Virus record (IMG/VR): IMGVR_UViG_3300015369_000022
Coordinates: 1 to 33,307 of that record
DNA length: 33,307 bases
DNA from: a virus
Direction: 5' to 3' (one strand)
Positions within the stretch are counted from its first letter, which is position 1, and the number at the start of each line of letters is the position of its first letter. Both the position numbers and the translations under genes were made by a program. The notes under the pieces were generated by a model. It ran no database searches, had not been told where the DNA came from, and saw nothing but the letters and a program-made list of their open reading frames with translations. Shown one piece after another: positions 142 through 24,952 of the stretch.

Positions 142-1346
142 GGAATCCGTCCAGGCTGTCGAGGATGCCGGGAGTAAGGAGAGGCGAGCACAAGCAATTC
201 CTCATTGATACGAACATCGGAAAAGAGACATGGAATGAATGGAAGGAATGGATCGAGTCAGTCAATGACGATCTTCCGGACCTGGAGCCGCTCTCCGATG
301 TCTGGGATGATCTCCCTCCGCTTGCTCCGCCATTGATTGACGGGATCCTCCGGCAAGGTCACAAGATGCTTGTGGCCGGGCCGACAAAAGCCGGTAAATC
401 ATTCCTACTCATCGAGATGGCTATAGCCATAGCTTCCGGGACTCCGTGGCTCGCCTGGAATTGTGCGAGAGGCAAGGTCCTATACATCAATCTGGAGCTG
501 GACCGCGCGAGCTGTCTTCACAGATTTCATGATGTATACGAGAAGCGCGGCATCGATCCGGAGTCGATAAGGAATATCGATATATGGAATCTCAGAGGCA
601 AGAGCTGTCCGATGGACAAGCTCGCTCCGAAGCTGATAAGACGAGCCGCGAAGAAGGACTATATCGCGATCATCGTGGATCCGATTTATAAGATCATCAC
701 GGGAGATGAGAATTCCGCGAGCGAGATGGCCTTCTTTTGTAACCAATTCGACAAGATCTGTACTGAGCTCGGATGTGCGGTCATATATTGCCATCATCAT
801 TCCAAAGGATCTCAGTCTCAGAAAAAGTCGATGGACAGAGCGAGTGGATCCGGCGTATTCGCGAGAGATCCGGACGCGCTGCTCGACATTATTGAACTGA
901 AGATGGATGAGAAGCATCTATTCGAGGCGAAGACGGCTCTCGGACTCGATGATGACGCGCTGGATGCGCTGTCAGCATGGAGAATCGATGGCACGCTCAG
1001 AGAATTCCCGAAATTCAAGGCGATCAATGCATTCTTTGACTGGCCGGAGCACATAGCCGACAGATGGAGCATTCTTGATGAGGTCTCGGAGGTCGGATCC
1101 TACTGGAAGGAGAAGACATCGGAGCAAAACAAGGAGCGGAGGAAGAATCAGAGATTCGAAGATCTCGATAAGGCATTCGAGGCCGCCGGATTCTCCGGTC
1201 CGCCGACCATCAAGATGATGGCGGAATATCTCGGCAAGACAGAGAAGACGATCCGACGCTGGATATCCGAATCTCCGAATTATGAGATCGTCAACAGCAA
1301 TGTTCACATGGTCGAAGGGAAGCAAATGAAATTCCCGTCGGAGTGA
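1..1346 (+). CDS. Primase-helicase, C-terminal part (continuation across the circular junction of the ORF starting at 32425): RecA/DnaB-like AAA_25 ATPase plus C-terminal HTH
   Basis: Frame 3 is open from base 3. Walker A is VAGPTKAGKS and Walker B-like is IAIIVDPI. The C-terminus MMAEYLGKTEKTIRRWI looks like an HTH. The frame is continuous with 32425-33166. Confidence 0.85.
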   Translation, partial: CLVYSGGKSVHAIVKIDAADYAEYRKRVDYLYEVCKQNGLVIDTQNRNPSRLSRMPGVRRGEHKQFLIDTNIGKETWNEWKEWIESVNDDLPDLEPLSDVWDDLPPLAPPLIDGILRQGHKMLVAGPTKAGKSFLLIEMAIAIASGTPWLAWNCARGKVLYINLELDRASCLHRFHDVYEKRGIDPESIRNIDIWNLRGKSCPMDKLAPKLIRRAAKKDYIAIIVDPIYKIITGDENSASEMAFFCNQFDKICTELGCAVIYCHHHSKGSQSQKKSMDRASGSGVFARDPDALLDIIELKMDEKHLFEAKTALGLDDDALDALSAWRIDGTLREFPKFKAINAFFDWPEHIADRWSILDEVSEVGSYWKEKTSEQNKERRKNQRFEDLDKAFEAAGFSGPPTIKMMAEYLGKTEKTIRRWISESPNYEIVNSNVHMVEGKQMKFPSE

Positions 1347-2596: not shown

Positions 2597-3053
2597 ATAC
2601 GCAATCGGTGACATTGTGAGAGTCGAGACCGGAAGATTCGCGATTGATACGGGAGTCGTAGTCGATAAATTTGAGACAGCTCCCCGGAAGCCAAGATATA
2701 TGATTTATTTTCAAGATGATGGAATTTTAGACTATGAGGAAGATCAAATCAAAGGATATGCTGAATCATTCTATGAGAAGTATTGCCGGGTATATCCGAA
2801 TCATACATTGAGACCGGACGGAAGTCCGGACATCGCTCCGGTCCAGCTGGATCGCTCAGTGATAGCCACATGGGATGTACTCGGATTCAAGAAGCCGATC
2901 ACGAATATGGATAAACTCAAAGAGGTCTTCGGAGAGTATTCTCATATTCCGATCAATCAGATTAGAGAATACGAAAAATGGTCTGAAGATGAATATGGCA
3001 ATCGATATGAGAGCTGGCTTGATTCTCTGTATAAGGAGGATTCAAATGAATAG
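2586..3053 (+). CDS. Hypothetical protein
   Basis: 155-aa ORF in operon context. Confidence 0.6.
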   Translation: MKYKYAIGDIVRVETGRFAIDTGVVVDKFETAPRKPRYMIYFQDDGILDYEEDQIKGYAESFYEKYCRVYPNHTLRPDGSPDIAPVQLDRSVIATWDVLGFKKPITNMDKLKEVFGEYSHIPINQIREYEKWSEDEYGNRYESWLDSLYKEDSNE

Positions 3054-3363
3054 TCGCGACAAAGGTAAGCGAGGCGAGCTCGAGCTTGCGAAGACACTCA
3101 GATCTCACGGCTATGATGCAAGGAGAGGACAGCAATACTCCGGAGCTAATGGAGATGCTGATGTGATAGGTCTTCCGGGAATCCATATCGAGTGTAAGAG
3201 GACAGAGTCATTCCGTATGTGGGATGCGCTCGCTCAGTCAACACGAGATGCAAGAGACGGAGAGATCCCGGTCGTGATGCATAAGAAGAATCACTCTCAC
3301 TGGATAGTCGTGCTCACTCTGGATGATTTCATGGAGCTTTACAAGGAAGGAGGCCGCTCATGA
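3046..3363 (+). CDS. PD-(D/E)XK nuclease, Holliday-junction-resolvase-like
   Basis: AAGGAGGA RBS precedes ATG 3046. Motifs are GKRGE, GDADVIG and IECK (D...ExK). The track ORF start at 2875 is an out-of-gene extension. Confidence 0.65.
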   Translation: MNSRDKGKRGELELAKTLRSHGYDARRGQQYSGANGDADVIGLPGIHIECKRTESFRMWDALAQSTRDARDGEIPVVMHKKNHSHWIVVLTLDDFMELYKEGGRS

Positions 3364-3512
3364 GGATGATTGTGCCGTCAATCACATCCTGGATCCGTAA
3401 GAGATGGTATGAGGATGATTTCAATGAGTATGATGACGGATTCTGGGATGACGAAGATCTGTATGACGATTATGAGGATGAGGAAGATCAAGAGGCTGAA
3501 TGGCCAGACTAA
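3360..3512 (+). CDS. Small highly acidic protein (50 aa), below the ORF-track threshold
   Basis: ATGA overlap with the upstream stop. Translates to MRMIVPSITSWIRKRWYEDDFNEYDDGFWDDEDLYDDYEDEEDQEAEWPD. Confidence 0.4.
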   Translation: MRMIVPSITSWIRKRWYEDDFNEYDDGFWDDEDLYDDYEDEEDQEAEWPD

Positions 3513-3637
3513 ATGAAGGAGATAACCGGCGGCGGGTACAGCATGATCAACCATGACAGAAATACTTTCCAATAATTTCCTTTTAGTAAACTTATAATTA
3601 GATACTCGATAACCGGCCCGCCGTCGGATATCTATAT

Positions 3638-3820
3638 ATGAAGTGTTATATGTGCGGTAAGGAATGCAATGAATATGATATGTTCGATTTCTTTACGGGG
3701 AGGAATCACAAGATCTGTTTTGAATGTCACATCAAGATGGACAAGGAATATAACAAGGTGCATTCCGCAAATAAGCAAAGGATCCAGAGGATTCAAGACA
3801 AGAAACGGAGGTCTAAATGA
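3638..3820 (+). CDS. Small zinc-ribbon protein
   Basis: Carries CxxC...CxxC (CYMCGKEC ... CFECH). The RBS is weak. Confidence 0.5.
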   Translation: MKCYMCGKECNEYDMFDFFTGRNHKICFECHIKMDKEYNKVHSANKQRIQRIQDKKRRSK

Positions 3821-4113
3821 TTATATTTTCAAGCGACTACTTGCAAGCCGTGAATCTCGATTCAATTACGGCGATATATGTCACTCGGAATGGCGGAGTG
3901 AAAGTCAATTTCAAGGACGGGACAGGATGCCAGCTCGGAAGTTATCTCTCGGAGGATGATGCAAAGAGAGCGCTCAAGATGATCAAGGAGCCGATCAGAC
4001 TCGGACATCCGACATATACAATGCCGACACTGGAGCAGCTGAAGGATATCGATAAGGCTCCGATCGTCATTCCGGTAAATGGTAGGAAGCAAAAGAGACA
4101 TGGAGGATCATGA
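3817..4113 (+). CDS. Hypothetical protein
   Basis: GGAGGT RBS and an overlapping stop/start. Confidence 0.6.
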   Translation: MIIFSSDYLQAVNLDSITAIYVTRNGGVKVNFKDGTGCQLGSYLSEDDAKRALKMIKEPIRLGHPTYTMPTLEQLKDIDKAPIVIPVNGRKQKRHGGS

Positions 4114-4367
4114 TGAATAATACATTGACATCACTCAATAATTATCTATTTGAACAAATCGAGCGCATCCAGGACGATGAGCTATCCGGAGAAGATCTCG
4201 ACAAGGAGCTGAAAAGATCCGCGGCCATATGCGATGTGGCCGGAAAGATCATCGATAATGCTGATCTCCAGCTGAAAGTCATGAAGCATGTCGATGAATA
4301 TTACGGCTCATTCAAAGGCTCGAATGAGGAAGTATGTAAGCAGCTCATCGGAGGTGAGACAAAATGA
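4110..4367 (+). CDS. Hypothetical protein
   Basis: GGAGGA RBS and operon packing. Confidence 0.6.
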   Translation: MMNNTLTSLNNYLFEQIERIQDDELSGEDLDKELKRSAAICDVAGKIIDNADLQLKVMKHVDEYYGSFKGSNEEVCKQLIGGETK

Positions 4368-5158
4368 GAAAGCGCTGGCCGGAAGAGGTTATCGAGTGGC
4401 TGAGGCAAAACGCGGAAGGACACTCGACGGCTGAGCTGACTCGGATGATCAATGAGACGGATCTCGCTGAGAGATATGGTCTTGTCTTCACGGAGAAGAT
4501 ACTACACTCAGCGAAGTCCAGATATAAGATCAAGTCCGGGAATTACGTCAGAGCGAAGCATTACAAATTCCCGCCGGAGGTCAGAGCGTACATCAAGGAA
4601 GTGAATCCAGGCCGGAGAGCTTCCGATGTGGCTCAGCTGGTCAATGAGCGATTCGGAGATGGGACGTGTACTGTCGATCAGATCAGAGCGTACAAAAAGA
4701 ATAACCGGCTCCCGTCCGGGTATGATGCGAAATTCAAGAAGGGACAGCCGTCAGCATTCAAGGGGACAAGGCGTCCGACCAGAGGAAGGCAAGGCGAGAC
4801 GCAATTCAAGAAGGGACATATCCCGGCGAATCATGTCCCGGTCGGGACGATATCCAAAGGATCCGGATACTGGAAGGAGAAGATCGCTGAGCCGGATGTC
4901 TGGAGGATGTGTCATCATCTCGAGTGGGAGAAATATCATGGGCCTATTCCGGAGGGATGTAATATCACTTTCCTGGATGGCAATCGGGATCACTACAATA
5001 TCGAGAATCTCAAGTGCATCAGTAAGAGAGTAAATGCTGAAGTGAATCGAGCCGGGATGAGATTCGACAGTCCGGATCTGACAGAGACCGGATGTAACAT
5101 CGCGGAGCTGAGGCTCGCGATGCTCGACAAGAGGAAAGGAAATAAGAAGGACGAATGA
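4364..5158 (+). CDS. HNH (HNH_3-type) homing-like endonuclease with two N-terminal HTH-like repeats
   Basis: The C-terminus HHLEWEKYHGPIPEGCNITFLDGNRDHYNIENLKCISKRVN matches the HNH_3 pattern. The N-terminus has two related WP.EVIEWL / FPPEVRAYI modules. Confidence 0.75.
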   Translation: MRKRWPEEVIEWLRQNAEGHSTAELTRMINETDLAERYGLVFTEKILHSAKSRYKIKSGNYVRAKHYKFPPEVRAYIKEVNPGRRASDVAQLVNERFGDGTCTVDQIRAYKKNNRLPSGYDAKFKKGQPSAFKGTRRPTRGRQGETQFKKGHIPANHVPVGTISKGSGYWKEKIAEPDVWRMCHHLEWEKYHGPIPEGCNITFLDGNRDHYNIENLKCISKRVNAEVNRAGMRFDSPDLTETGCNIAELRLAMLDKRKGNKKDE

Positions 5159-5243
5159 TATTTGATGACGGACAATGGCAAGCATGGCTCATCGTGCTGA
5201 TGCTGATCCCGCTTGTGTATATTGGACTAAGGAGATAAGAGAC

Positions 5244-5645
5244 ATGGGATTCGAACATGCTCCGGAGAGGAAGAAGAATATTGAGCGCATGGAAGAGCGT
5301 GTCGAGAGGTTGAGGGCGAAAGCTCAAGGAGGCTCGGCATGCTCGGACACTGAGAGAGTACAGACATCTCTCCCGAAGGATCGGACTATCTATCTCGATG
5401 CCGCGGCTGACATCCAGCGCGAGATCGATAAGGAGATGGCTATACTCAGAGCGGAGAGAGCTGAGGCGTATCGATTCATGCGCTCGCTTCCGGATCCGAT
5501 TGATAAGCAAATCATCCGGATGAGATACATTGAATTCATATCGATGACAGACATCGCTGATGCGCTCGGGTATGATCAGCGCTGGCTCCGGAAGAAGAGG
5601 GCGAGACTACTACTTAAGTATAGAGAAGGTCATGAGAATGAATAA
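5244..5645 (+). CDS. Sigma-70 region-4-like HTH protein (DUF1492/RinA/ArpU-type late-gene regulator)
   Basis: AAGGAG RBS precedes ATG 5244. The C-terminus IRMRYIEFISMTDIADALGYDQRWLRKKRARLL resembles sigma region 4. The gene sits immediately upstream of the packaging module. Confidence 0.55.
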   Translation: MGFEHAPERKKNIERMEERVERLRAKAQGGSACSDTERVQTSLPKDRTIYLDAAADIQREIDKEMAILRAERAEAYRFMRSLPDPIDKQIIRMRYIEFISMTDIADALGYDQRWLRKKRARLLLKYREGHENE

Positions 5646-5704
5646 GACCTCCCAGGACCGCAAGCCGGAATGATAGTGTTACCATAGCGAAGCTATGAGG
5701 TAAC

Positions 5705-6064
5705 ATGATGAGTGATGGCAAGGAGAAACAATTCTACGACTCGGCCGCGTGGCAAGAGAAGCGGGAGCAAATCTTGAGGCGTGACCATTATGAGTGCCAG
5801 GATTGTATTGCCAGGCTACGCAATGCGGCCAGGGAGGGAATCATCCTCAAGGGTAAGGAGCGACGGATTCGTCGTGCGACTTGCGTCCATCACATCGTCG
5901 AGCTGAGAGATAACTGGGATCTCCGGCTGGATGATAACAATCTCATCAGTTTGTGCGATGGTTGCCACAACAAGCGTCACGGTCGCGTCCTTGATGCTCA
6001 ATGGAGCGAGGAAGGACGGCAAGGATGGCTCAAGAGGAAGCGTCTGACCGATGAGATGTGGTGA
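5705..6064 (+). CDS. HNH endonuclease (terminase-associated type)
   Basis: Motifs are CQDC...HHIVEL...NLISLCDGCHNKRH. It lies upstream of the P27-type TerS and TerL. Confidence 0.85.
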   Translation: MMSDGKEKQFYDSAAWQEKREQILRRDHYECQDCIARLRNAAREGIILKGKERRIRRATCVHHIVELRDNWDLRLDDNNLISLCDGCHNKRHGRVLDAQWSEEGRQGWLKRKRLTDEMW

Positions 6065-6164
6065 ATCACAGCGAAAATAAATCCCCCCGGTCAAATTCTC
6101 AGCGAAATTCCCTAAGACCGACTGACGATGGGATGCATTGTTACGGAGATAAAATCCGATTTAT

Positions 6165-6188
6165 ATGAGGTTTCGGCCTCATTTTTTA
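6165..6188 (+). terminator. Rho-independent terminator-like hairpin
   Basis: The hairpin atgaggtttcggcctcat is followed by tttttt. Confidence 0.55.
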
Positions 6189-6209
6189 TATTTCAGAGGA
6201 ATTTGAAAC

Positions 6210-6611
6210 ATGATTTATGTGATATGTGGAATAATCGGATCCGGAAAGTCGACATATGCCTCAATGCATTTCGCGCATGTCACGGAATGCGAGGGAATGA
6301 CTAAGATGAGCCAGCTTCAAGAGACGTGGAGTCTGTATGAGGCCGGAGAGGATGTCGCACATGTCACGACCTATCCGACATCGGAAGAGCTGGAGATGCT
6401 CGCCGGCGTGCCGGATGAGGATAAGACATTCATATTGATTGATACGGATCTCCGCCAGGCGAAGGCGAACATCATCAAGCGGAATCGTCCGCATGATATG
6501 ACAAGGCTGTCGGAGACACTCGAGAAGAATAAGGAGATCGCTCGGAGGCTGGCATCGTCCAAAATCCCATTCGAGCGGATCCAGCTTTTTGAGACCGGAG
6601 AGAGGTGGTAA
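6210..6611 (+). CDS. Small P-loop NTPase/kinase (AAA_33-like)
   Basis: N-terminal Walker A is GIIGSGKST. The protein is 133 aa and the gene is inserted between HNH and TerS. Confidence 0.6.
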   Translation: MIYVICGIIGSGKSTYASMHFAHVTECEGMTKMSQLQETWSLYEAGEDVAHVTTYPTSEELEMLAGVPDEDKTFILIDTDLRQAKANIIKRNRPHDMTRLSETLEKNKEIARRLASSKIPFERIQLFETGERW

Positions 6612-6613
6612 GC

Positions 6614-6919
6614 ATGACACAGACGGAAGTTAAAGCATCACTGATTGAGCAGCTTGTGGAGAAGGGGCAGGATACAAAGTACATGCTCGGGCTTGTGGAT
6701 GACTATATGCAACACTACAAGATTATTCGTCTTCTTTGGAAGGATGTGAATAAGCGCGGCGTCAAGGTCGACACATTCAATTCTCACGGAGATCCTGTCG
6801 TAAAGGACAATGAGAGCCTGGCATCGATTCAAAAAGAGCAAATGATCATGCTCAAGATCCTCCAGACGCTCAAGCTTCAAGAGCCTGTCAAGATAGCGAG
6901 CAACGATGATTATCTGTAA
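6614..6919 (+). CDS. terS: Terminase small subunit (P27 family-like)
   Basis: Called from size, position directly upstream of and overlapping TerL, and the partnering HNH. A GTG at 6605 is an alternative start. Confidence 0.65.
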   Translation: MTQTEVKASLIEQLVEKGQDTKYMLGLVDDYMQHYKIIRLLWKDVNKRGVKVDTFNSHGDPVVKDNESLASIQKEQMIMLKILQTLKLQEPVKIASNDDYL

Positions 6920-8594
6920 GGAGATCCAGGACTACATCGAATATGTCGAGAATCATAAGGCGTGGATCAATCAAGACCGTCGGCTCTTGATCAAGAATGT
7001 TGTCAAGCCGCTTCTCAAGCGGGATGACATCTTTTTTGATTCGGGGACATTCCACAATTGCATCAAGTATTGTGAAGCGAATTTCTATCCGCTTTTTCCA
7101 TTTCAGAAATTCATCTATGCATTCGTTTTTATGTACTGGCAAGGCTCGGACGAATTTCCGGATGACACTCCGGTCTTCCGGAAGTTTCTGATCCTGGAAG
7201 GCCGCGGGAATGGCAAGGATGGATTCGTGATGCCGCTGGCGTCCTTTATGCAAACTCCGCTCTACGGAGTCAAGGATTACCATGTCGACATCGTGGCAAA
7301 TTCCGAAGACCAGGCGAAGGATACATTCAAAGTGGTCTGGAATATGCTCGAGGCGAATCCGAAAAAATTCAAAGGAAAATTCAATTGGACTCGAGAGCTG
7401 ATCACGAACAAGGTGACGGGCTCAGAGCTTAAATTCAATACATCGACAGCCGGCACGAAGGACGGTAAAAAGATCGGGCTTCTCATCTTCAATGAGCTTC
7501 ACGCTTATGAGAATTATGACCAGATCAACGTATTTGAGTCCGCACAAGGCAAGATCAGACATCCGCGTGAGATCATCATCACGACTCAAGGCTATGTCAG
7601 AGATGGTCCGCTTGACGATATTCTGACCATGTGCAAGGAGATCCTCAAGACCGGACAGAATGATCTCTGGTATTTTCCATTCCTCTGTCGGCTCGACAAG
7701 GCTGAAGAGGTCGACGATGAAGAGGCGTGGCATAAAGCGAATCCGGCGCTCGAATTCATGCCGATTCTTGCGAGTGAGCTGAAGATGCAATATCGCGAGA
7801 TGAAGGTCTTGACGTCGAAGCGAGCGGAATTCATGACGAAGCACATGAATCTCCCGGCGTCGAAACAAGAGGCCACAGTCACGAGCTGGGATAATATCCT
7901 TCTTGCATGCTATAAGGACATCGACAGATCTGAGCTGAGGCCGACTCCGGACACGTCCGGCAATTATGCCATCGTCGGAATCGACTATGCTGATATCCGC
8001 GACTTCGCATCGGCCGGCGTGCTGACAAAGACGGACGCGGGAGAGTACATCTGGCGTCAACATACATGGATCAATGCTCAGAGTCCTTATTTCGACGGAA
8101 TCAAATTCCCGCTCACGAATATTGGACAGCCGGAATTCGACGATTTCGAGATCGTTGATGCTCCGGTCATTCCGGTCGATGCTGTCATTGACTGGATCGA
8201 GAAGAAATATCTGTCGAAGTATGTGGTCCGCAAGATCGCAATGGATACATACAGATATACGTTATTCAAGCAAGAATTCATAAATCGCGGAATCAGCATC
8301 GAGAATCGGAAGGATAATCCGGACGGTCTTGTCCGGCTGATCCGCAAGCTCGGATCCGCGACTGGAGTCATCGCTCCATTCATCGAGCAAGAATTCGCAA
8401 TGCATAATATCAATTTCGGAGCCAGCGCGATCATGCGCTGGTACACGAATAATACATCCGTCATTACTGATAAGTACGGGAATAAGCAATTCGGTAAGAT
8501 TGAGCCGTATTTCCGAAAGACGGACGGATTCATGGCATTCGATGTGGCCATGTTCTGTAAGGATGAGCTTGAAATCCGCACGATTTACATCTAA
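6906..8594 (+). CDS. terL: Terminase large subunit (Terminase_1-like)
   Basis: 562 aa with the Walker A-like motif LILEGRGNGKDGF, upstream of the portal gene. Confidence 0.9.
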   Translation: MIICKEIQDYIEYVENHKAWINQDRRLLIKNVVKPLLKRDDIFFDSGTFHNCIKYCEANFYPLFPFQKFIYAFVFMYWQGSDEFPDDTPVFRKFLILEGRGNGKDGFVMPLASFMQTPLYGVKDYHVDIVANSEDQAKDTFKVVWNMLEANPKKFKGKFNWTRELITNKVTGSELKFNTSTAGTKDGKKIGLLIFNELHAYENYDQINVFESAQGKIRHPREIIITTQGYVRDGPLDDILTMCKEILKTGQNDLWYFPFLCRLDKAEEVDDEEAWHKANPALEFMPILASELKMQYREMKVLTSKRAEFMTKHMNLPASKQEATVTSWDNILLACYKDIDRSELRPTPDTSGNYAIVGIDYADIRDFASAGVLTKTDAGEYIWRQHTWINAQSPYFDGIKFPLTNIGQPEFDDFEIVDAPVIPVDAVIDWIEKKYLSKYVVRKIAMDTYRYTLFKQEFINRGISIENRKDNPDGLVRLIRKLGSATGVIAPFIEQEFAMHNINFGASAIMRWYTNNTSVITDKYGNKQFGKIEPYFRKTDGFMAFDVAMFCKDELEIRTIYI

Positions 8595-8606: not shown

Positions 8607-9788
8607 ATGTTCGATTGGTTATTTGAAAAGAATGACAAAATCATAAGCTATATGGAAATACTCCAGAGCCAGATCAAGGAGCTGAATGCGAGCAAATTCG
8701 CGATGCACAAATGCATTTCGATGATCGCAAATGCCATCGCGAAGAGCGAGATCGTCATCCAGGGCGAGAGCGGTCTCCGCATTGATGAGATCTATTACAG
8801 ACTCAATGTCCAGCCGAATGACAATGAGACCGGGACTGAATTCTGGAAGGCTGTCACGGCGAGATTATTGATCGAGAGCGAGTGCCTCATCATCCCGATG
8901 GGATCCGGACTCGATCGTAAATTCTATATCGCTGATACATGGACCGAAGATAATACCATCATGAGACCGCGCAAATACTCGAATATCACTCTCGAATGCG
9001 CGAGACAGACGATTCAGCTCCGGAAGAATTTCAAGGCTGACGAAGTCATCCATCTGAGGCTCCCGGCCACAGAGCAAAAACGCCAGTATTTCATGAATGT
9101 CGCTCAGCTGTACGACAAGACCGCATCGACAGCGGCCACGCTTGTCCAGCTTGCTAATACTCCGAAGTGGGGAGTCGGCGTTGACACGAATGTGAGACTG
9201 GTCGAAAAGAGCGCGGACGGTACGGACAAGGTGCTGACCGGCCGCGAGTATGTCGACCGGATCAAGAATATGCTGACATCGGATGACATCGTGGCGATGA
9301 TGATTCCGCAAGGAGTCAGCATCGAGGCGCTCCAGACAAGCGGGAGCTCATCCGTCTCGACGTCGGATCTCGATTCACTGATCCAGGCGGCGGAGTCCGC
9401 GGCGGCCAGAGCATTCGACATCCCTCAGATGGTATATTTCGGGACCATCTCGGACAAGAGTGACGCGACAAATGAATTCATCACATACGCGGTCGGACCT
9501 GTCGCTGAATGCATCAATGACGGCATGAATGCGAGTCTGGTCGGAATGGATGATTACATCAATAAGAATGAGCGAGTCATGATCTTCCTGGCGCGTTTCA
9601 AGCACATTGACATTATCGACAGCGCGGACAAGCTGTCGAAGATGCGCGGAGACGGCTGGACGCTCGATGAGATATTCCATCTTGTGGGATATCCGGAGCT
9701 CCATACCGATTTCACGATGACAAGGGCATTGACGAAGAACTACGCCACGGCCGAAGCCGGCGGCGCTGTAGATTCGGAAAGCAAATAA
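8607..9788 (+). CDS. Portal protein (HK97 family-like)
   Basis: 393 aa, positioned between TerL and the prohead protease. Confidence 0.85.
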   Translation: MFDWLFEKNDKIISYMEILQSQIKELNASKFAMHKCISMIANAIAKSEIVIQGESGLRIDEIYYRLNVQPNDNETGTEFWKAVTARLLIESECLIIPMGSGLDRKFYIADTWTEDNTIMRPRKYSNITLECARQTIQLRKNFKADEVIHLRLPATEQKRQYFMNVAQLYDKTASTAATLVQLANTPKWGVGVDTNVRLVEKSADGTDKVLTGREYVDRIKNMLTSDDIVAMMIPQGVSIEALQTSGSSSVSTSDLDSLIQAAESAAARAFDIPQMVYFGTISDKSDATNEFITYAVGPVAECINDGMNASLVGMDDYINKNERVMIFLARFKHIDIIDSADKLSKMRGDGWTLDEIFHLVGYPELHTDFTMTRALTKNYATAEAGGAVDSESK

Positions 9789-19177: not shown

Positions 19178-19939
19178 ATGAATATTATTACCGGATACGG
19201 CGGCGAGCCGCACGTTACAGCTCCACAGGATCGTCAGCTGAACGCTGGCATCCTCTCGGAATATAATTATGTACTCAGTGTCGGGAATCAATTCGCATAT
19301 GAGATCGAGTCGGCGAATTCCGTCATCCTTAAAGACGGGATTCTGTCCCTCCAGGGATGCGCTGCTTCGATTGATGCGAATGATACAGAGACGGTCACTC
19401 TGACGAATGGTACATCCGGATATAAACGGACGGATTTGATCGTGGCACGTTATGAGCTCAACACTGATACAGCCGTCGAGTCGGTCACGCTGGCCGTCAT
19501 CGAAGGCACTCCGGCGGAATCGGATCCGGAGACTCCATCATACAATGAAGGTACGATCGCGGACGGTGACAGCCCGGTTGACTTCCCGCTGTATAAGGTC
19601 AATATCGACGGAGTAAGCATCGATTCACTGACTCAGATGTTTACGGTCCTTCCGTCAATTAGTGATTTAAACAGCAACACAGTGAAAGATATCAGAGTCA
19701 TTGAAGTGTCCGTATCAATAACAATCAATGCATCTACATCCGGCACAAAAACCGCGACTTATACCATCCCGGATGGCTATAAGGTTGTTATGTTCGGAGG
19801 ATGCACATCGTCAAATACTACAATCGTCCCGGCTGGTGTTACAGGCTTATCCGGGACTGCAACATTTAGAGGACGCAACACATCGAGCTCATCTCAGACA
19901 ACAACGCTGACAGCTATCTTGTTATGCTTTAAAAGTTAG
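19178..19939 (+). CDS. Tail fibre / receptor-binding protein; the current C-terminus is cassette x1 (19678-19939)
   Basis: Last tail gene before the lysis module. Its C-terminal ~87 aa are homologous to three silent cassettes. Recombination core A lies in frame at 19667-19677. Confidence 0.7.
   Translation: MNIITGYGGEPHVTAPQDRQLNAGILSEYNYVLSVGNQFAYEIESANSVILKDGILSLQGCAASIDANDTETVTLTNGTSGYKRTDLIVARYELNTDTAVESVTLAVIEGTPAESDPETPSYNEGTIADGDSPVDFPLYKVNIDGVSIDSLTQMFTVLPSISDLNSNTVKDIRVIEVSVSITINASTSGTKTATYTIPDGYKVVMFGGCTSSNTTIVPAGVTGLSGTATFRGRNTSSSSQTTTLTAILLCFKS
19667..19677 (+). repeat. Recombination core A (TTAAACAGCAA), inside the tail-fibre ORF
   Basis: Read directly. Codons TTA AAC AGC AAc encode LNSN. 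Confidence 0.7.
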
Positions 19940-19968: not shown

Positions 19969-20226
19969 TTAATCCTTCATATACAGAATACTTAAAATAA
20001 CATATTCATTAGAATAAGCTGTTGAATTGTGATTCTTTACTCTAACAATTGCATCTGTACCATCCAGATTGAATTTTGCAATTGTACTTGCACCGGAAAA
20101 CCAATTCATCACTCCTACAATACCAATCGGCGTATAACCATCTTTTGAGACATCGGTTGTTATGTCCAATGTACTGGATGCAGGAAGCGTTGCTTTTGCG
20201 GATGTAATATTCTCAACAAGAAACAT
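19969..20226 (-). CDS. Silent alternative tail-fibre C-terminal cassette x2 (frame open up to core B at 20237-20247)
   Basis: Convergent with the fibre 3' end. The upstream in-frame codons read QLNSNIKD, against DLNSNTVKD in the fibre. It shares the DGY motif and a hydrophobic C-terminal pattern. No RBS or promoter is visible. Confidence 0.6.
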   Translation of the reverse strand: MFLVENITSAKATLPASSTLDITTDVSKDGYTPIGIVGVMNWFSGASTIAKFNLDGTDAIVRVKNHNSTAYSNEYVILSILYMKD

Positions 20227-20236
20227 ATCCTTGATA

Positions 20237-20247
20237 TTGCTGTTTAA
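20237..20247 (-). repeat. Recombination core B (TTAAACAGCAA on the - strand)
   Basis: Exact inverted copy of core A, in the same codon register. Confidence 0.7.
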
Positions 20248-20277: not shown

Positions 20278-20580
20278 ATGAATGAAGGTACAAAGATAAG
20301 GACCGCGCTTCGCGTTGCGGTCTCTTTGAATACCGCGATTTATGCTGTAATGGCCGCGGTCAATGGTCTCGGAAGCACAAAGGCGTCAATCGTCTGGAGC
20401 GTGCTGACGATTCTCAGTGATTTCGTCGTGTCGTTTATTACGACATACTATAACAACGATTATACGAAGGAAGCGTGTCTCGGGACCGGCATCACGCGCC
20501 AGCTGAAGGCTGAGGGCGGTGACGGCTACGGAGCTGAGACATTCTTTTCAGATGAGGAAGGAGCGTCAGAGGATGAATAG
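20278..20580 (+). CDS. Holin (SPP1-family-like)
   Basis: AAGGAG lies 8 nt upstream of ATG 20278. Motifs are GTKIRTAL, two TM-like segments and YYNNDYTKEA, with an acidic tail. It overlaps the endolysin start. Confidence 0.75.
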   Translation: MNEGTKIRTALRVAVSLNTAIYAVMAAVNGLGSTKASIVWSVLTILSDFVVSFITTYYNNDYTKEACLGTGITRQLKAEGGDGYGAETFFSDEEGASEDE

Positions 20581-21409
20581 TGCTATATACAGACAGTATG
20601 ATTCACGCTGGGGCTCGCTTCCGTATCCTACGAAGACCTATAACATGAGCGGATGCGGATGCGGATGTTGCGCGGTGCTCCATTGCATTATCGAGCGCTC
20701 AAAATATGCGAAGTATACTCCGAAGACCATCCAGCCATACATGAAGGGCTTCGCTGTCGGCGGAAACGGGACTCTTTGGAGCGGGATCCGCGACGGGCTG
20801 AAGCATTATGGCATGGATAATGTCAAATGGTTTGGTGCATCGGCCACAATGACGGAGATCTTCGCTGAGCTGAAGAAGGGATCCAGAATCGGAGTCATCC
20901 TCTTCGGATCCACGAAAGGCCCGGACGGGACTGTATGGACCACAGGCGGCCATTATATCGCTTTTACGGATTACAAGATCAAGAATAGCAAGCACTATTT
21001 TTATCTTAAGGATTCCGGCGGACGGAAGCATGATGGATGGTATTGCTATGAGAAGTCCATGAAGGGCGATGTCCGCCAGGTCTGGACATGTACTGTCCCG
21101 AAGGAGGCATCGACAGCCACAGCGACAGCTTCCACAAAGAAGACCACAGCGAAGACATCATCGAAAAAGACCTATTCCGGGACATTCCCGTCCTTCTCAA
21201 AGTGTCTCGAGAAGGGCGATAAGGGGACTCAAGTGAAGAATCTCCAGAAATTCCTCAATTGGTACGGAGGATATAAGCTCACTGTCGATGGTATTTACGG
21301 ATCCGCGACAGTGACAGCCGTGAAAAAATTTCAAAAGGCTGAGGGACTGACCGCTGACGGCATATTCGGCCCGGCATCCCTCAAGGCCGCGAAGAAGGTG
21401 AAGAAGTGA
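20573..21409 (+). CDS. Endolysin: N-terminal papain-fold cysteine peptidase plus C-terminal PG_binding_1 domain
   Basis: Motifs are YDSRWGSLPY..SGCGCGCCAV (catalytic Cys region) and GGHYIAF. The C-terminus GDKGTQVKNLQKFLN...VDGIYGSATVTAVKKFQ is a peptidoglycan-binding repeat. Confidence 0.8.
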   Translation: MNSAIYRQYDSRWGSLPYPTKTYNMSGCGCGCCAVLHCIIERSKYAKYTPKTIQPYMKGFAVGGNGTLWSGIRDGLKHYGMDNVKWFGASATMTEIFAELKKGSRIGVILFGSTKGPDGTVWTTGGHYIAFTDYKIKNSKHYFYLKDSGGRKHDGWYCYEKSMKGDVRQVWTCTVPKEASTATATASTKKTTAKTSSKKTYSGTFPSFSKCLEKGDKGTQVKNLQKFLNWYGGYKLTVDGIYGSATVTAVKKFQKAEGLTADGIFGPASLKAAKKVKK

Positions 21410-21705
21410 TGCCGCCAGAGGTGTTAATTGCTATCATCGGGAGCTCAGCTCTCTTCTCATTCATTCAATTCATTATCACGCGAATTGATAACAAGCGGAA
21501 TAATCCGCTCAATGACGCGGTAAAAGCGCTGCTCAGAGACCGGCTGATTCACATATGCTCCGGATATCTGAGGAATGGCGAGATCCGCGTCAACGATCTC
21601 GACACGGTTATAAGCTTATATACATCGTATAAAGAACTCGGCGGGAATGGTTTCGTCACGGAGCTGGTCGACCAGGTGACGGAGCTTCCTAAAATTCATA
21701 ATTAA
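21406..21705 (+). CDS. N-terminally membrane-anchored protein (possible lysis accessory protein)
   Basis: A TM segment (VLIAIIGSSALFSFIQFII) lies at the N-terminus. The start overlaps the endolysin stop. Confidence 0.5.
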   Translation: MMPPEVLIAIIGSSALFSFIQFIITRIDNKRNNPLNDAVKALLRDRLIHICSGYLRNGEIRVNDLDTVISLYTSYKELGGNGFVTELVDQVTELPKIHN

Positions 21706-21722
21706 ATACTTCCTACATATAA

Positions 21723-21755
21723 GGCGGGCCTTTAATGGTCCGCCGCTTTTTTTTA
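21723..21755 (+). terminator. Rho-independent terminator ending the late/lysis operon
   Basis: The hairpin ggcgggcc-tttaat-ggtccgcc is followed by a T9 tract. Confidence 0.75.
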
Positions 21756-21801
21756 TTTGATAAGATTCTCGAATCGAATCAAAATGAAGGAGGAAATTAT
21801 T

Positions 21802-22662
21802 ATGTACGAGTATGAAGAATTATGGGATACAGCCTTGAGACGCTTCCGGGCTTGCAAGACATTGGAGAATTGTGCTGAGACCACCATCAAGCAATATGAA
21901 GACATCATTCGGAAACTGAGGCAATGGACAGACAAGCCGCTGGACCAGATCAATGGAGACGATCTCCGGGAATTCCTGGCGGAATACCATTCGAGCCGGA
22001 ATGTCTCGCTTGCATATCTCGACACTCTGAGACGCTATCTGTCGGCATGGTTTGGATGGGTAGCCGATGACGATCTGATTATGAAGAATCCGGCAAGGAA
22101 AATCCCGAAGATTAAAGTCCCGAAGACCGTCAAGAAGGCATTCACATCCGAAGAACGCGAGATGCTCAAGGATTCCGCGTCATCTATTCGAGATCTGGCG
22201 CTCATGGAGGTCCTTTATTCGACCGCGGCCCGTATCAACGAGATCCTGGCGCTGGATCAGAGCGATGTCGACTTCCCGAATCGTGAGATCGTCATATACG
22301 GACAGAAAGGCAAGCGGGAGAGAATCGTATATCTGTCGGATCCGGCGGCATATCGCCTCCAGCGCTATCTCGAGAGCCGGTCCGATAAGAATCCGGCGCT
22401 ATTCGTCTCGAATCGGAAGCCGTATCAGCGCTTAACGTCCCAGGGAGCTCAGCGGATGCTCAGAGAGCTGGGACGCGAGACCGGGATCCATGTTCACGCT
22501 CACAAATTTCGGCGGAGCTTCCTCACTGATGCATCATCGAAAGGAATGAGCCTCCAGGAATTACAGATCTACGCTGGCCATGTGAAGCCGGAAACCACAA
22601 TGACATACATCGACGTCAAACAGGAAGACATCAAAGCCACATTCCGGAGAATAATCACATAA
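21802..22662 (+). CDS. Small tyrosine site-specific recombinase (XerC/D-like size); candidate shufflon invertase
   Basis: GAAGGAGG RBS precedes ATG 21802. Catalytic signature is ARINEIL (R), HKFRRSF (HxxR) and GHVKPETTMTYI (H..Y). The stop codon TAA (22660-22662) is part of core C. Confidence 0.8.
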   Translation: MYEYEELWDTALRRFRACKTLENCAETTIKQYEDIIRKLRQWTDKPLDQINGDDLREFLAEYHSSRNVSLAYLDTLRRYLSAWFGWVADDDLIMKNPARKIPKIKVPKTVKKAFTSEEREMLKDSASSIRDLALMEVLYSTAARINEILALDQSDVDFPNREIVIYGQKGKRERIVYLSDPAAYRLQRYLESRSDKNPALFVSNRKPYQRLTSQGAQRMLRELGRETGIHVHAHKFRRSFLTDASSKGMSLQELQIYAGHVKPETTMTYIDVKQEDIKATFRRIIT

Positions 22663-22669
22663 ACAGCAA
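22660..22669 (+). repeat. Recombination core C (TAAACAGCAA)
   Basis: Read directly. It is in the register aTA AAC AGC AAt and leads in frame into cassette x3. Confidence 0.65.
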
Positions 22670-22670
22670 T

Positions 22671-22922
22671 TTGACGCTTGTAAAAAAAACGTATACTGGA
22701 ACGACGTCCGACACAAATTCCATCGTAAGCACGGAGCTAAGCATCGAAGATTATATTCCTCTTAAATGTAATTGTGCCATCAAAGGCTATGAGGTATGTG
22801 TTGTGCCTTATTGTTATAGCACATGGAAGTTTCAGCTCGTCGCTGCTAACGGTCATGCTCCTGTCGGTTCTGGGAAAAGTTACACCTTAACTGTGTGGCT
22901 TTTGGAATGGCCTACATCTTAA
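22671..22922 (+). CDS. Silent alternative tail-fibre C-terminal cassette x3 (in frame from core C)
   Basis: It has no ATG or RBS; the track start is TTG. It is ~85 aa with a KGY motif and an LTVWLLEW-type C-terminal strand, homologous in layout to x1, x2 and x4. Confidence 0.5.
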   Translation: MTLVKKTYTGTTSDTNSIVSTELSIEDYIPLKCNCAIKGYEVCVVPYCYSTWKFQLVAANGHAPVGSGKSYTLTVWLLEWPTS

Positions 22923-22932
22923 TGCCTCAAGA

Positions 22933-23191
22933 CTAATCATCCGATGCTCTGAGCAAGAGCCGGAGCTTGCAAGTTATTCCGGAGGCTGAGCCGGATGTGT
23001 GGTTTACAATATACGCTCTGTTGAGGCTGTCATTGAGTTTAACTGTCAGATAATGATAATTTGTGCCGGACAGCAATGGAGTTATTGACAGACAATCATA
23101 ACCATCCGGGACAGTAAAAGCATAAGGAGTCGAATTGCCTCCGGCATAAGAGCCGCCTGTTACAAGCGTGATGTCCTCAATCGTGAGAGTT
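22933..23191 (-). CDS. Silent alternative tail-fibre C-terminal cassette x4 (in frame from core D)
   Basis: FTVPDGYDCL in x4 aligns with YTIPDGYKVV in the expressed fibre. The track ORF extends to 23328 only by read-through of noncoding repeats. Confidence 0.6.
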
Positions 23192-23201
23192 TTGCTGTTT
23201 A
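23192..23201 (-). repeat. Recombination core D (TAAACAGCAA on the - strand)
   Basis: Read directly. The register is GTA AAC AGC AAA, encoding VNSK. Confidence 0.65.
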
Positions 23202-23230
23202 CTTGACAAACACGCTCAAATTCCGCATCA

Positions 23231-23290
23231 AGCTTGATTATTTTATAATTTTTTGAAAATAGCTTGATTATTTTATAATTTTTTGAAAAT
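23231..23290. repeat. Perfect 2 x 30-bp tandem repeat (agcttgattattttataattttttgaaaat)
   Basis: Read directly: 23231-23260 is identical to 23261-23290. Confidence 0.9.
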
Positions 23291-23299
23291 GCGGAAAAA

Positions 23300-23328
23300 A
23301 TTCGCGCAAAATCCGGAAAATTTGTCAA
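23300..23328 (-). promoter_or_regulatory. Promoter-like element facing leftward toward core D
   Basis: On the - strand, TTGACA is followed by 17 nt and then GCGAAT, with TG at the extended -10 position. The -10 is weak. Confidence 0.3.
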
Positions 23329-23502: not shown

Positions 23503-23613
23503 GACTCATTTTTATTGATATTTAATGATAATGAATTTATAATCTTTTCCATATGTTTCACGAATTATCAACATCCGTGATGCGCGGTGATAAGCGAAGA
23601 TAAGGGACATAAT

Positions 23614-23806: not shown

Positions 23807-24952
23807 TTAGCTTTGCGCTGATAAGAGCTCATCGATGCCATGCGCTATTCCTCTGGAGCTGGCGGATGCATCCTGGAAGAGATGAGTGTATATGTCGAGC
23901 GTGGTCGACTTCTCAGCATGTCCCAGCTGGCTCGATATGTCGAGTATGTCATATCCCAGATATCTCGCAAGGCTGGCGTGAGTATGACGGAGCTTGTGCG
24001 GTGTTACGGCCGGGAGATTGTGTCGCTCTTCCAGCCGCATCAAATACCAGCTGACTTGATTCGAGTGGATCGGGGATCCGTCATAGTCCAGGATGACGAA
24101 ATTTGATCGCTCAAGGCCCGGCATCCGGATCCAGAGCTCGAGATGCCGCTTCCGGAGCTGAGCGAGATGATCCTTGAGCCGGTCCGGGATGGCTATCGTC
24201 CGGGCTGACTCTTTTGTTTTGGTATCAGAGACGATGTCCTTGATCTCATCGCCGGTATTCACGCGATGGCGCGACTTATTCACAGTGATGATGCCGTCTC
24301 CGATGTTATCGACGGTGAGACCTAAGATCTCCGACATACGGAGACCACAGAATAAGGCCAGCTCAATCGCACATACGCGGTCCGGCTCCGCGTCAAATTC
24401 CGTATCAAGAGCGCTACAAAATGGAATAAATGTCTCAATGTCCAGAGTGATCGGCTCCTTGCGCTCTTTTTTCGGAAGCTCGACTCGCTCGCAAGGATTC
24501 CGGTCGAGCTCTCCCAGGCGGACAGCCCGGTTATATGCTGAGCTGAGCAGCGAGACCGTATTCCGGACCGTCTTCGGAGAATAATTCTTGTCTTCCGTCA
24601 GTTTCCGGATCCATCTGTCGATATCCATCGGCTTCACGTTCTTCGCTTTCGGATCTCCCAGAGTCTCAGCGATGCGCTCCCGGACTACACGGTATCCTCT
24701 GAGCGTGGTCTCTCTGGCTCCGGCCGACTTCCTGGCGTCGATATAGTCATTGATGATGTCAGAGAGCGTCACGGATCCGCGGAGAGCCTTATTATTATCG
24801 ACTTCGGTCTCGAATAATCTGTATTGACGATTGAGATCCCGCTTCGATGTATATTCGACCGTCTTCTTGTATCGGATCGGCTTCCCGGCGAGATCTGATC
24901 CTCTGTATACCACGAGCCGGGCCTTATGATCGTTAATTATTTCAATTCCCAT
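23807..24952 (-). CDS. int: Phage integrase (tyrosine recombinase with N-terminal arm-binding-type domain)
   Basis: 381 aa. Signature is GLRMSEIL (R), HKLRHTHAS (HxxR) and GHAEKSTTLDIYTH (H..Y). The gene is adjacent to attP and the repressor. Confidence 0.9.
   Translation of the reverse strand: MGIEIINDHKARLVVYRGSDLAGKPIRYKKTVEYTSKRDLNRQYRLFETEVDNNKALRGSVTLSDIINDYIDARKSAGARETTLRGYRVVRERIAETLGDPKAKNVKPMDIDRWIRKLTEDKNYSPKTVRNTVSLLSSAYNRAVRLGELDRNPCERVELPKKERKEPITLDIETFIPFCSALDTEFDAEPDRVCAIELALFCGLRMSEILGLTVDNIGDGIITVNKSRHRVNTGDEIKDIVSDTKTKESARTIAIPDRLKDHLAQLRKRHLELWIRMPGLERSNFVILDYDGSPIHSNQVSWYLMRLEERHNLPAVTPHKLRHTHASLARYLGYDILDISSQLGHAEKSTTLDIYTHLFQDASASSRGIAHGIDELLSAQS

Follow-up and report, generated by a model that had tools for sequence, protein, structure and literature searches.

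A second tyrosine recombinase in a temperate phage as the probable invertase of a receptor-binding protein shufflon

Why does a temperate gut phage that already possesses a large integrase carry a second, shorter tyrosine recombinase behind its lysis genes? The question is raised by IMG/VR virus record IMGVR_UViG_3300015369_000022, of which positions 1 to 33,307, the whole stretch of DNA analysed, are called here the window (33.3 kb), and by the gene at 21802 to 22662 within it, which encodes a recombinase of 286 amino acids (aa). The separate 381-aa integrase, already pointed out when the DNA was read from its letters alone (the sequence-only reading), is a real open reading frame (ORF) at 23807-24952 on the minus strand; it has an extra N-terminal arm-type Int_N domain according to Pfam and is unrelated to the shorter enzyme in BLASTP (21.6 bits, E 0.69). 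The answer favoured here, with a probability of roughly 80%, is that the shorter enzyme inverts the DNA of a shufflon with four ports and four cassettes, by which the phage exchanges the head domain of its receptor-binding protein (RBP). The case is built from the anatomy of the locus, its reading frames, the RBP fold, the family relations of the enzyme and real inversion isomers in sister phages, all of which are observed directly; from these, the enzyme of this phage most likely acts on the recombination cores of this phage. All coordinates refer to the window, and the names A to D for cores, Rc and s2 for ports and segment, and c1 to c4 for cassettes are labels for this locus.

The proposed recombination sites share a 10-mer, TAAACAGCAA, which occurs in exactly four exact copies in the window, in the orientation + - + -:

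19668..19677 (+): core A, inside the RBP gene at codons L164-N167
20237..20246 (-): core B, an exact copy, inverted
22660..22669 (+): core C, beginning with the recombinase stop codon
23192..23201 (-): core D, an exact copy, inverted, at the right-hand end of the shufflon

Simple arithmetic puts the number of exact matches expected in 2 x 33 kb at about 0.06, and shuffles with one mismatch allowed gave 0.91 matches, none of 100 reaching the observed count. All four cores read in one frame, xTA AAC AGC AAx, which translates as L/I/V-N-S-N/K. The sole copy with one mismatch, TCAACAGCAA at 1291-1300 (+) inside the ORF 9-1346, is probably a matter of chance, since 0.91 such matches are expected. 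An oligonucleotide carrying the core site has the sequence TSANNTAAACAGCAA. To the left of the cores, all four sites show the loose pattern described in the sequence-only reading, T-(C/G)-A at -5 to -3, which is all that their left flanks have in common; the right flank is specific to each cassette. To the left of the four window cores, neither an inverted second arm nor an inverted repeat of the whole core or its right part was found, a result obtained with no search dedicated to dif-like sites. The sfx sites of plasmid R64 are also asymmetric, with a conserved core and one conserved arm. The window sites are asymmetric as well, like rix (PMC6109161). It is plausible that this asymmetry blocks deletion between the direct repeats A/C and B/D and so keeps the enzyme to inversions. 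Loss of the DNA between A and C would take out the lysis genes together with the recombinase.

The recombinase gene and the signals immediately in front of it are arranged as follows:

21723..21752 (+): terminator-like hairpin with a stem of 8 bp, of which 7 are GC pairs, and a T-run, GCTTTTTTTT
21757..21785 (+): promoter-like site TTGATA-17-CAAAAT ahead of the recombinase gene
21788..21793 (+): AGGAGG, ribosome-binding, 8 nt 5' of the recombinase ATG
21802..22662 (+): tyrosine recombinase, 286 aa, the proposed shufflon invertase, without an arm-binding domain

The R, HxxR and H..Y signature attributed to this ORF was confirmed, and alignment to XerA together with the motif positions yields a complete catalytic set: R144, K169, H234-x-x-R237, H260 and Y269. 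Pfam recognises Phage_integrase (PF00589, 1.1e-33) and the SAM-like core-binding domain Phage_int_SAM_4 (PF13495, 2e-11), which are tyrosine-recombinase domains only, with no resolvase-type (serine recombinase) domain, and the top match in the PDB is Pyrococcus abyssi XerA (4a8e, 1.3e-31). The gene does follow the late-operon terminator and does have its own strong ribosome-binding site, as had been proposed, and its TAA stop (22660-22662) does form the first three bases of core C. The promoter-like match is weak (9/12), and such sites are no commoner in this region than in shuffles. The overlap of stop and core is seen in the window phage only, the gap being 20 bp in a 65%-identical relative (L087) and about 110 bp in a group of 53% relatives (the L011 group); it is a local compaction, and it is harmless because TAA starts every core and the left arm always moves with the recombinase gene. 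Both the window recombinase and its closest relative, P0122 (283 aa), are without an N-terminal extension of about 44 residues, most relatives being 329-331 aa long.

The gene into which core A is set, and the cassettes behind the cores, are these:

19178..19667 (+): Rc, the constant N-terminal part of the RBP gene (residues 1-163), proposed as the sole expressed port
19678..19939 (+): cassette c1, the head domain now fused to Rc, in frame, with its stop at 19937-19939
19969..20236 (-): cassette c2, silent, inverted, tail to tail with c1, open for 89 codons in the core frame
22670..22922 (+): cassette c3, silent, oriented like Rc and 3 kb away from it, open for 84 codons in the core frame
22933..23191 (-): cassette c4, silent, inverted, tail to tail with c3, open in the core frame, with a PDGY motif as in c1

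The RBP ORF (19178-19939, 253 aa), of which core A forms codons 164-167, is preceded by genes for the tape measure (phrog_58, 9.5e-74), Dit (phrog_33) and a minor tail protein (phrog_538). Among its 1857 homologues, conservation is strong to about residue 150-160, after which the alignment breaks down. An AlphaFold2 model from 45 sequences, with a mean predicted local distance difference test score (pLDDT) of 80.6, comprises a beta-rich N-terminal domain at about residues 30-155, a short helix at 161-166 with a dip in pLDDT, and a C-terminal beta-sandwich at 172-252. The best Foldseek matches in the PDB are the RBPs of lactococcal phage 1358 (4l92, E 1.5e-4, probability 1.0) and of phage p2 (2bsd and 1zru, probability 0.99), with template modelling scores that are low, about 0.35, as expected because the domain orientations differ. 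On the strength of the p2/1358-like fold and the linker position of the core, the model therefore places core A in the neck that joins the constant shoulder of the RBP to an exchangeable head domain.

Behind each of the four cores lies an open frame of 83-89 codons closed by a stop. Simple arithmetic gives a chance of about 0.017 for each frame of this length in random sequence, so that finding all three silent cassettes open in the correct frame speaks for selection. The peptides of the four cassettes differ greatly; they have in common a (D/K)GY motif some 30-40 residues in and a hydrophobic C-terminal strand, and the G+C content of the cassettes is 0.35-0.47 as against about 0.50 for the rest of the locus. 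Neither the Rc gene nor the cassettes have a Pfam match, and the window contains no Methylase_S gene. Homologues of the Rc gene in the phages P0062 and P0017 have no adjoining cassettes; the shufflon is therefore not general to the Rc-type RBP family.

How, then, would the locus work? Its order is Rc, core A, c1 and c2 tail to tail, core B, a central segment s2 (holin-like gene, endolysin gene, small ORF, terminator and recombinase gene), core C, c3 and c4 tail to tail, core D, the right flank, a possible attP region and the integrase gene. Each site is proposed to be flanked by a fixed port on the left and, on the right, by a cassette of about 85 codons that has no promoter, the four ports being Rc (the RBP shoulder gene), the left end of s2, the right end of s2 (the recombinase 3' end) and the right flank. 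Expression would come only from the Rc port. The left-end port of s2 is the antisense of the holin ribosome-binding region, the right-end port is the 3' end of the recombinase gene in a different frame, and the right-flank port offers a 43-codon extension with a TTG start and no Shine-Dalgarno sequence, running through a 30-bp AT-rich tandem repeat.

Recombination of two inverted cores would flip the DNA between them. An A x B event would exchange c1 and c2 on Rc by one 560-bp inversion, and a C x D event would exchange c3 and c4, while A x D and B x C events would flip the 2.4-kb s2 with the holin, endolysin, small ORF and recombinase genes. The order would always remain Rc, pair, s2, pair, flank, from which the geometry predicts 2 x 2 x 2 x 2 = 16 isomers. 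To bring c3 or c4 to Rc would take a large A x D inversion; a further B x C inversion would put s2 forward again, so that two nested inversions would allow any cassette to sit on Rc with s2 forward. The stop and the C-terminus of the recombinase would be kept in every isomer because the cores all begin with TAA and crossover would take place within the identical 10 bp.

Support for such rearrangements comes from relatives of the enzyme. Those at 47-65% identity are encoded by phages with similar cores, mostly in the same two-plus-two layout of sites, and the core motif of the clade as a whole is roughly TAAAYRGYRA, of which TAAACAGCAA is one variant. In the 65% relative (L087), the core TAAATAGTAAT is found at 7007 (+) in a 348-aa tail gene, at 7658 (-), at 8872 (+) and at 9506 (-), with an 80-aa ORF and the recombinase between the second and third sites; three of its sites have a left flank of G-T/G-T-A-G-T at -10 to -5 in common, and the contig terminates exactly on the last site. 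The 53% sister lineage comprises about 45 loci from IMG/VR and metagenomes (reference L011), in most of which the core AAATAGTGA stands in the order + - + - around the recombinase, with the left flank GCA(A/T)A(C/T)A in the L011 group. Across the contigs of this lineage, four left arms are constant and the cassettes are permuted among them, with the junctions exactly at AAATAGTGA. Natural isomers number in the dozens among these metagenome contigs, and in some of them the recombinase segment is flipped.

Individual contigs illustrate the predicted states. L043 carries Rc-k48, s2L-k51, s2R-k49 and flank-k50, and L047 carries Rc-k50, s2L-k49, s2R-k48 and flank-k51; the two contigs thus hold one set of four cassettes, whose pairs have changed sides around a recombinase in forward orientation, as predicted for the outcome of the nested large inversions. 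L051 and L055, too, have one set of four cassettes between them and are related through inversions A x B, B x C and C x D. In L055, L050, L013 and L030, the segment with the recombinase runs opposite to the two flanks, and seven contigs carry the cassette pair k01/k02, now on one side of the recombinase and now on the other, and in either orientation. Additionally, in about 10 of the 45 sister loci the contig truly ends no more than 80 bp from a core, and several IMG/VR contigs break off 6-130 bp beyond the stop codon of the recombinase, as assemblers do at polymorphic inversion junctions; shufflon heterogeneity thus appears to fragment the assemblies of these phages. In L005, L009, L010, L013, L015, L038, L052 and L087, contigs end close to a core or to the recombinase stop, at distances from a few to about 100 bp.

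Other topologies and cores are found among further relatives. The 51% relatives L017, L062 and L063 (core TAAATAGCAAT) place a single site upstream of the recombinase and three or four inverted ones downstream of it, so that every switch must flip the recombinase gene. Further cores are AAAATGGCAA in L031, AAATAGGCA in L014 and L059 and, even at 35% identity, TAAATAGCA in L093. In the sister phages L057 (9438-11406) and L046 (37/2440), the right-hand port is a second, convergent copy of an Rc-type gene, and two expressed genes would therefore share one cassette pool.

In L095 (Logan SRR28437191 contig, 3720-6777), a 48%-identical recombinase lies between a 93-aa ORF (-) and an 85-aa ORF (+), the full layout being a 312-aa ORF (+), the 93-aa ORF (-), the recombinase, the 85-aa ORF (+) and a 133-aa ORF (-), with cores that resemble A(A/T)TTAGCAA; this locus comes shortly after the portal and MuF genes, with only a few genes in between, and not at the tail end. 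At 2987-7949, the human faecal record L003 (MT835621.1, 'Bacteriophage sp.') combines a gene for a type I restriction-modification methylase with hsdS genes; four copies of TAAATGATAATTTA (5044+, 5736-, 7325+ and 7936-) surround a recombinase 41% identical to that of the window. It is a phage-borne phase-variable restriction specificity locus. Among cultured phages of Clostridia, Terrisporobacter phage TPELB_ph1 (L001, 5815-6974) and Clostridium perfringens phage phiCp-D (L002, 5833-6810) encode a second 'integrase', 27-33% related, between the last tail gene and the holin/endolysin genes, followed in TPELB_ph1 by a small reverse ORF; no convincing repeated cores were found in these two AT-rich genomes.

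The family placement of the enzyme points in the same direction as its context. Against the curated NCBIfam equivalog cut-offs (XerA_Arch 220, XerC 335.15, XerD 329.6 and XerS 267), it scores 202.6, 136.6, 120.5 and 71.2, respectively, below every one of them, and orthology to a dimer-resolution Xer system was not found. BLASTP gives 81.6 bits and 27% identity to E. coli XerD, 51.6 bits to FimE and 31.2 bits to FimB, and returned no match at E <= 10 to R64 Rci (384 aa; NC_005014, L099:17003-18157). The nearest protein cluster, P0122, is 65% identical, followed by about ninety clusters at 47-59%, mostly of 329-331 aa, from gut metagenomes, Wansuia hejianensis (Lachnospiraceae) and metagenome-assembled genomes of Lachnospiraceae and Oscillospiraceae. 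At 41-44% identity (197-241 bits) stand L003, L090, P0212 and P0222, which neighbour Methylase_S/HsdS genes; the relatives at hsdS loci are those of Lactococcus cremoris plasmid pJM2A (S - recombinase - S - S'), of 'Bacteriophage sp.' MT835621.1, of a Mu-like phage contig and of a 770-member cluster.

In a neighbour-joining tree with 200 bootstraps, the window protein and P0122 are paired at 100%, and the phage-structural group adjoins the hsdS group, itself at 100%. Both groups, with other phage-borne relatives, split from E. coli XerD and XerD-like proteins at 80%, and FimB/FimE, the phage integrase and Rci lie outside. The expectation that profile searches and phylogeny would join the enzyme to shufflon and inverton recombinases rather than to integrases or Xer proteins therefore holds, except that it does not group with Rci in either BLASTP or the tree. 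Taken with the core context of the relatives and their isomers, the tree supports the view that the protein is probably a dedicated recombinase of the TAAACAGCAA cores. No near-identical copy of it was found in IMG/VR, GTDB genomes or JGI/ENA metagenomes, the best having 63% identity; a DNA search of the locus against 50,697 phage records and a search of IMG/VR for the exact Rc-core junction likewise gave no match.

The central segment of the window phage holds more than the recombinase:

20278..20580 (+): putative holin gene, the first of s2, a 100-aa ORF called in two other assemblies, directly 5' of the endolysin gene
20519..21409 (+): endolysin, matching PHROG endolysin families (phrog_2649, 5e-20), with PG_binding_1 on the record; gene callers start it at 20573
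21406..21705 (+): small ORF of 98-99 aa in a family of unknown function (phrog_4105, 3e-19), the last gene of the late operon

The holin label is positional and putative because there are no profile matches. The late-operon terminator stands only after the small ORF, and neither a terminator-like site between c1 and c2 nor a promoter-like site ahead of the holin gene was found, so the lysis genes appear to rely on read-through from the RBP gene and late operon across the silent cassette. In relatives, s2 consists of the recombinase alone (L011) or of the recombinase and a small ORF (L087), and phages of the L011 type have holin and endolysin genes downstream of the entire shufflon. What is new here is the inclusion of the recombinase and the whole lysis module within the central invertible segment; phage shufflons as such are already known.

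Several observations weigh against an active shufflon in this phage. Two further assemblies of it, found by exact-protein look-up (Logan SRR350590 and JGI 3300005362), are collinear with the window at 99.97-99.98% identity, without a break at the cores, and none of the three assemblies is an inversion isomer. In a protein collection of 5.8 billion clusters, no fusion of Rc to c2, c3 or c4 was found, Rc-c1 being the only one among the 1857 RBP homologues. Moreover, reaching c3 or c4 requires a flip of the lysis module. The holin-like gene starts only about 30 bp past core B, which leaves no room for a promoter of its own, and no leftward promoter-like site was found right of core D; intermediates with a flipped s2 may be unable to lyse, because the flipped lysis genes would lack both a promoter of their own and a leftward one. 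The missing isomers limit the shufflon interpretation but do not refute it, because consensus assemblies show the majority isomer only.

The explanation that draws most on these observations is that the shufflon is a fossil or nearly silent here, inherited from an active ancestor and fixed in its arrangement, for example through counter-selection of s2 flips. It would account for three collinear assemblies from at least two samples, none of them broken at a core, for the lack of any other Rc-cassette fusion, and for lysis genes placed within a segment that has to flip. It is nevertheless unlikely: no base of the 10 bp differs between the four cores, the recombinase ORF is unbroken and has its full catalytic set, each of the three silent cassettes has kept the correct frame open over 83-89 codons, for which the chance is about 0.017 apiece, and switching at low frequency would be missed in assemblies that show the majority isomer.

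According to a second explanation, only the local A x B and C x D inversions take place, and the C/D half serves another product, such as a 131-aa ORF at 22933-23328 (-). This ORF was called by a gene caller and reads in frame from the right flank through core D into c4, and the right-hand port of the sister phages L057 and L046 is, as noted, a second Rc copy. However, the ORF starts with TTG, has neither a Shine-Dalgarno sequence nor a profile match, and takes its 43 upstream codons through the 30-bp AT-rich tandem repeat; c3 and c4 show the (D/K)GY head-domain pattern of c1 and c2, which points to the same partner, Rc; and cassette pairs in sister phages do move between the two sides of the recombinase. 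This explanation is accordingly very doubtful. A Xer-type resolvase or second integrase, serving multimer resolution or an alternative attachment site and lying beside the cores by coincidence, is highly improbable, for although XerA, XerC and XerD give the best profile and structure matches and the size and domain layout are Xer-like, the scores fall short of every curated Xer cut-off, the tree sets the protein with phage-shufflon and hsdS-inverton recombinases apart from E. coli XerD, the 47-65% relatives are embedded between inverted TAAACAGCAA-related cores, mostly two plus two and with isomers in sister phages, and the phage already has its 381-aa integrase with an N-terminal arm-type domain.

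Between core D and that integrase gene, a perfect 30-bp tandem repeat, AGCTTGATTATTTTATAATTTTTTGAAAAT, occurs twice at 23231-23290, and a third, degenerate copy (67%) is found 264 bp further on, at 23525-23554. These repeats could be arm-type integrase sites of a candidate attP or a regulatory element; on the minus strand they translate into a repeated FSKNYKIIKL within the doubtful 131-aa ORF. No tRNA gene was found in the window.

The RBP shufflon favoured here has several counterparts among known systems. The closest in its way of working is the Rin shufflon of Bifidobacterium prophages, in which a XerD-like tyrosine recombinase diversifies a phage RBP (Mavrich et al. 2018, PMC6109161). Rin is likewise phage-encoded, without an arm-binding domain and distinct from the lambda-type integrase of its phage; its crossover sites are short and asymmetric (11 bp, compared with 10 bp in the window), and one is found upstream of every variable, promoterless C-terminus of the RBP; its constant N-terminal gene is a distant relative of the lactococcal phage 1358 RBP, the top fold match of the window RBP. 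It differs in that its hosts are Actinobacteria rather than Clostridia, its core TTCCCTAACCC is unrelated to TAAACAGCAA, the rin gene flanks the cassette array instead of being embedded in it, and no lysis genes lie in the invertible DNA. The window locus would work in a manner analogous to the Rin shufflon, a likeness that lies in the described architecture.

RBP shufflons are also reported in Eggerthella lenta prophages (PMC8778435), and a tail-fibre shufflon with all configurations detected in reads has been described in BV01-like Phocaeicola phages (2026 preprint, PMC13596623). In the latter, too, directional 10-bp motifs separate non-homologous cassettes at the tail-fibre gene's distal end and a recombinase is present, but the host belongs to the Bacteroidota, the motif is TGGGAGAACT, the cassettes number three, and the recombinase lies at the flank of the array. 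The hsdS 'epigenetic invertons', exemplified by pneumococcal PsrA (PMC7096588) and surveyed more widely (PMC7672463), contain the closest sequence relatives of the window enzyme outside the phage-structural group (the 41-44% proteins above). They are also the closest in layout, sharing a recombinase in the middle with expressed and silent target-gene halves on both sides, and the L003 core TAAATGATAATTTA starts like TAAACAGCAA; their target is the HsdS specificity subunit, whereas that of the window is an RBP-like virion protein.

Further parallels are more remote. Rci of plasmid R64 (IncI1) is a tyrosine recombinase that swaps the C-terminal segments of an adhesin, PilV, through multiple inversions at asymmetric sites with a conserved core and one variable arm. 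At 384 aa, it is about 100 aa longer than the window enzyme, which is without this extra length, and it is plasmid-borne, acts on a pilus adhesin and is encoded outside the invertible segments. The placement of the recombinase gene beside its sites had been likened to that of rci; the functional likeness stands, but the window gene lies inside the shufflon between the cassette pairs, in company with the lysis genes, and there is no BLASTP similarity. Gin of Mu, Cin of P1 and Min of p15B also select tail-fibre or RBP C-termini, and hence host range, by inversion in temperate phages, but they are serine recombinases that need an enhancer and Fis. XerA, XerC and XerD share fold and domain organisation with the window enzyme and differ in context, which is dif for them and phage cassettes here.

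In the literature searched, tyrosine-recombinase RBP shufflons are known so far from few groups, namely Bifidobacterium, Eggerthella and, recently, BV01-like phages. No prior description of this clade as a Clostridia phage RBP shufflon, or of lysis genes inside a shufflon, was found there, which is not proof of absence; such a shufflon is described neither in the Roseburia phage Shimadzu paper nor in the Nature 2025 long-read paper. The present findings suggest that temperate phages of gut Clostridia use a distinct clade of recombinases to diversify their RBPs, on hundreds of related metagenome contigs. The four-port topology explains the contig breaks next to the recombinase gene in assemblies. 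The clade is akin to the invertases of type I restriction systems, and its natural isomers form a set in which to study how an arm-less Xer-like enzyme keeps to inversions. A more speculative and rather unlikely extension is that the recombinase toggles lysis competence as well as host range, creating a phase-variable 'lysis off' state of the prophage coupled to the choice of RBP; if true, access to half the receptor-binding tips would pass through isomers whose lysis genes face away from the late promoter. With phage lysis genes inside programmed invertible DNA, the consequence for induction and lysis is directly testable.

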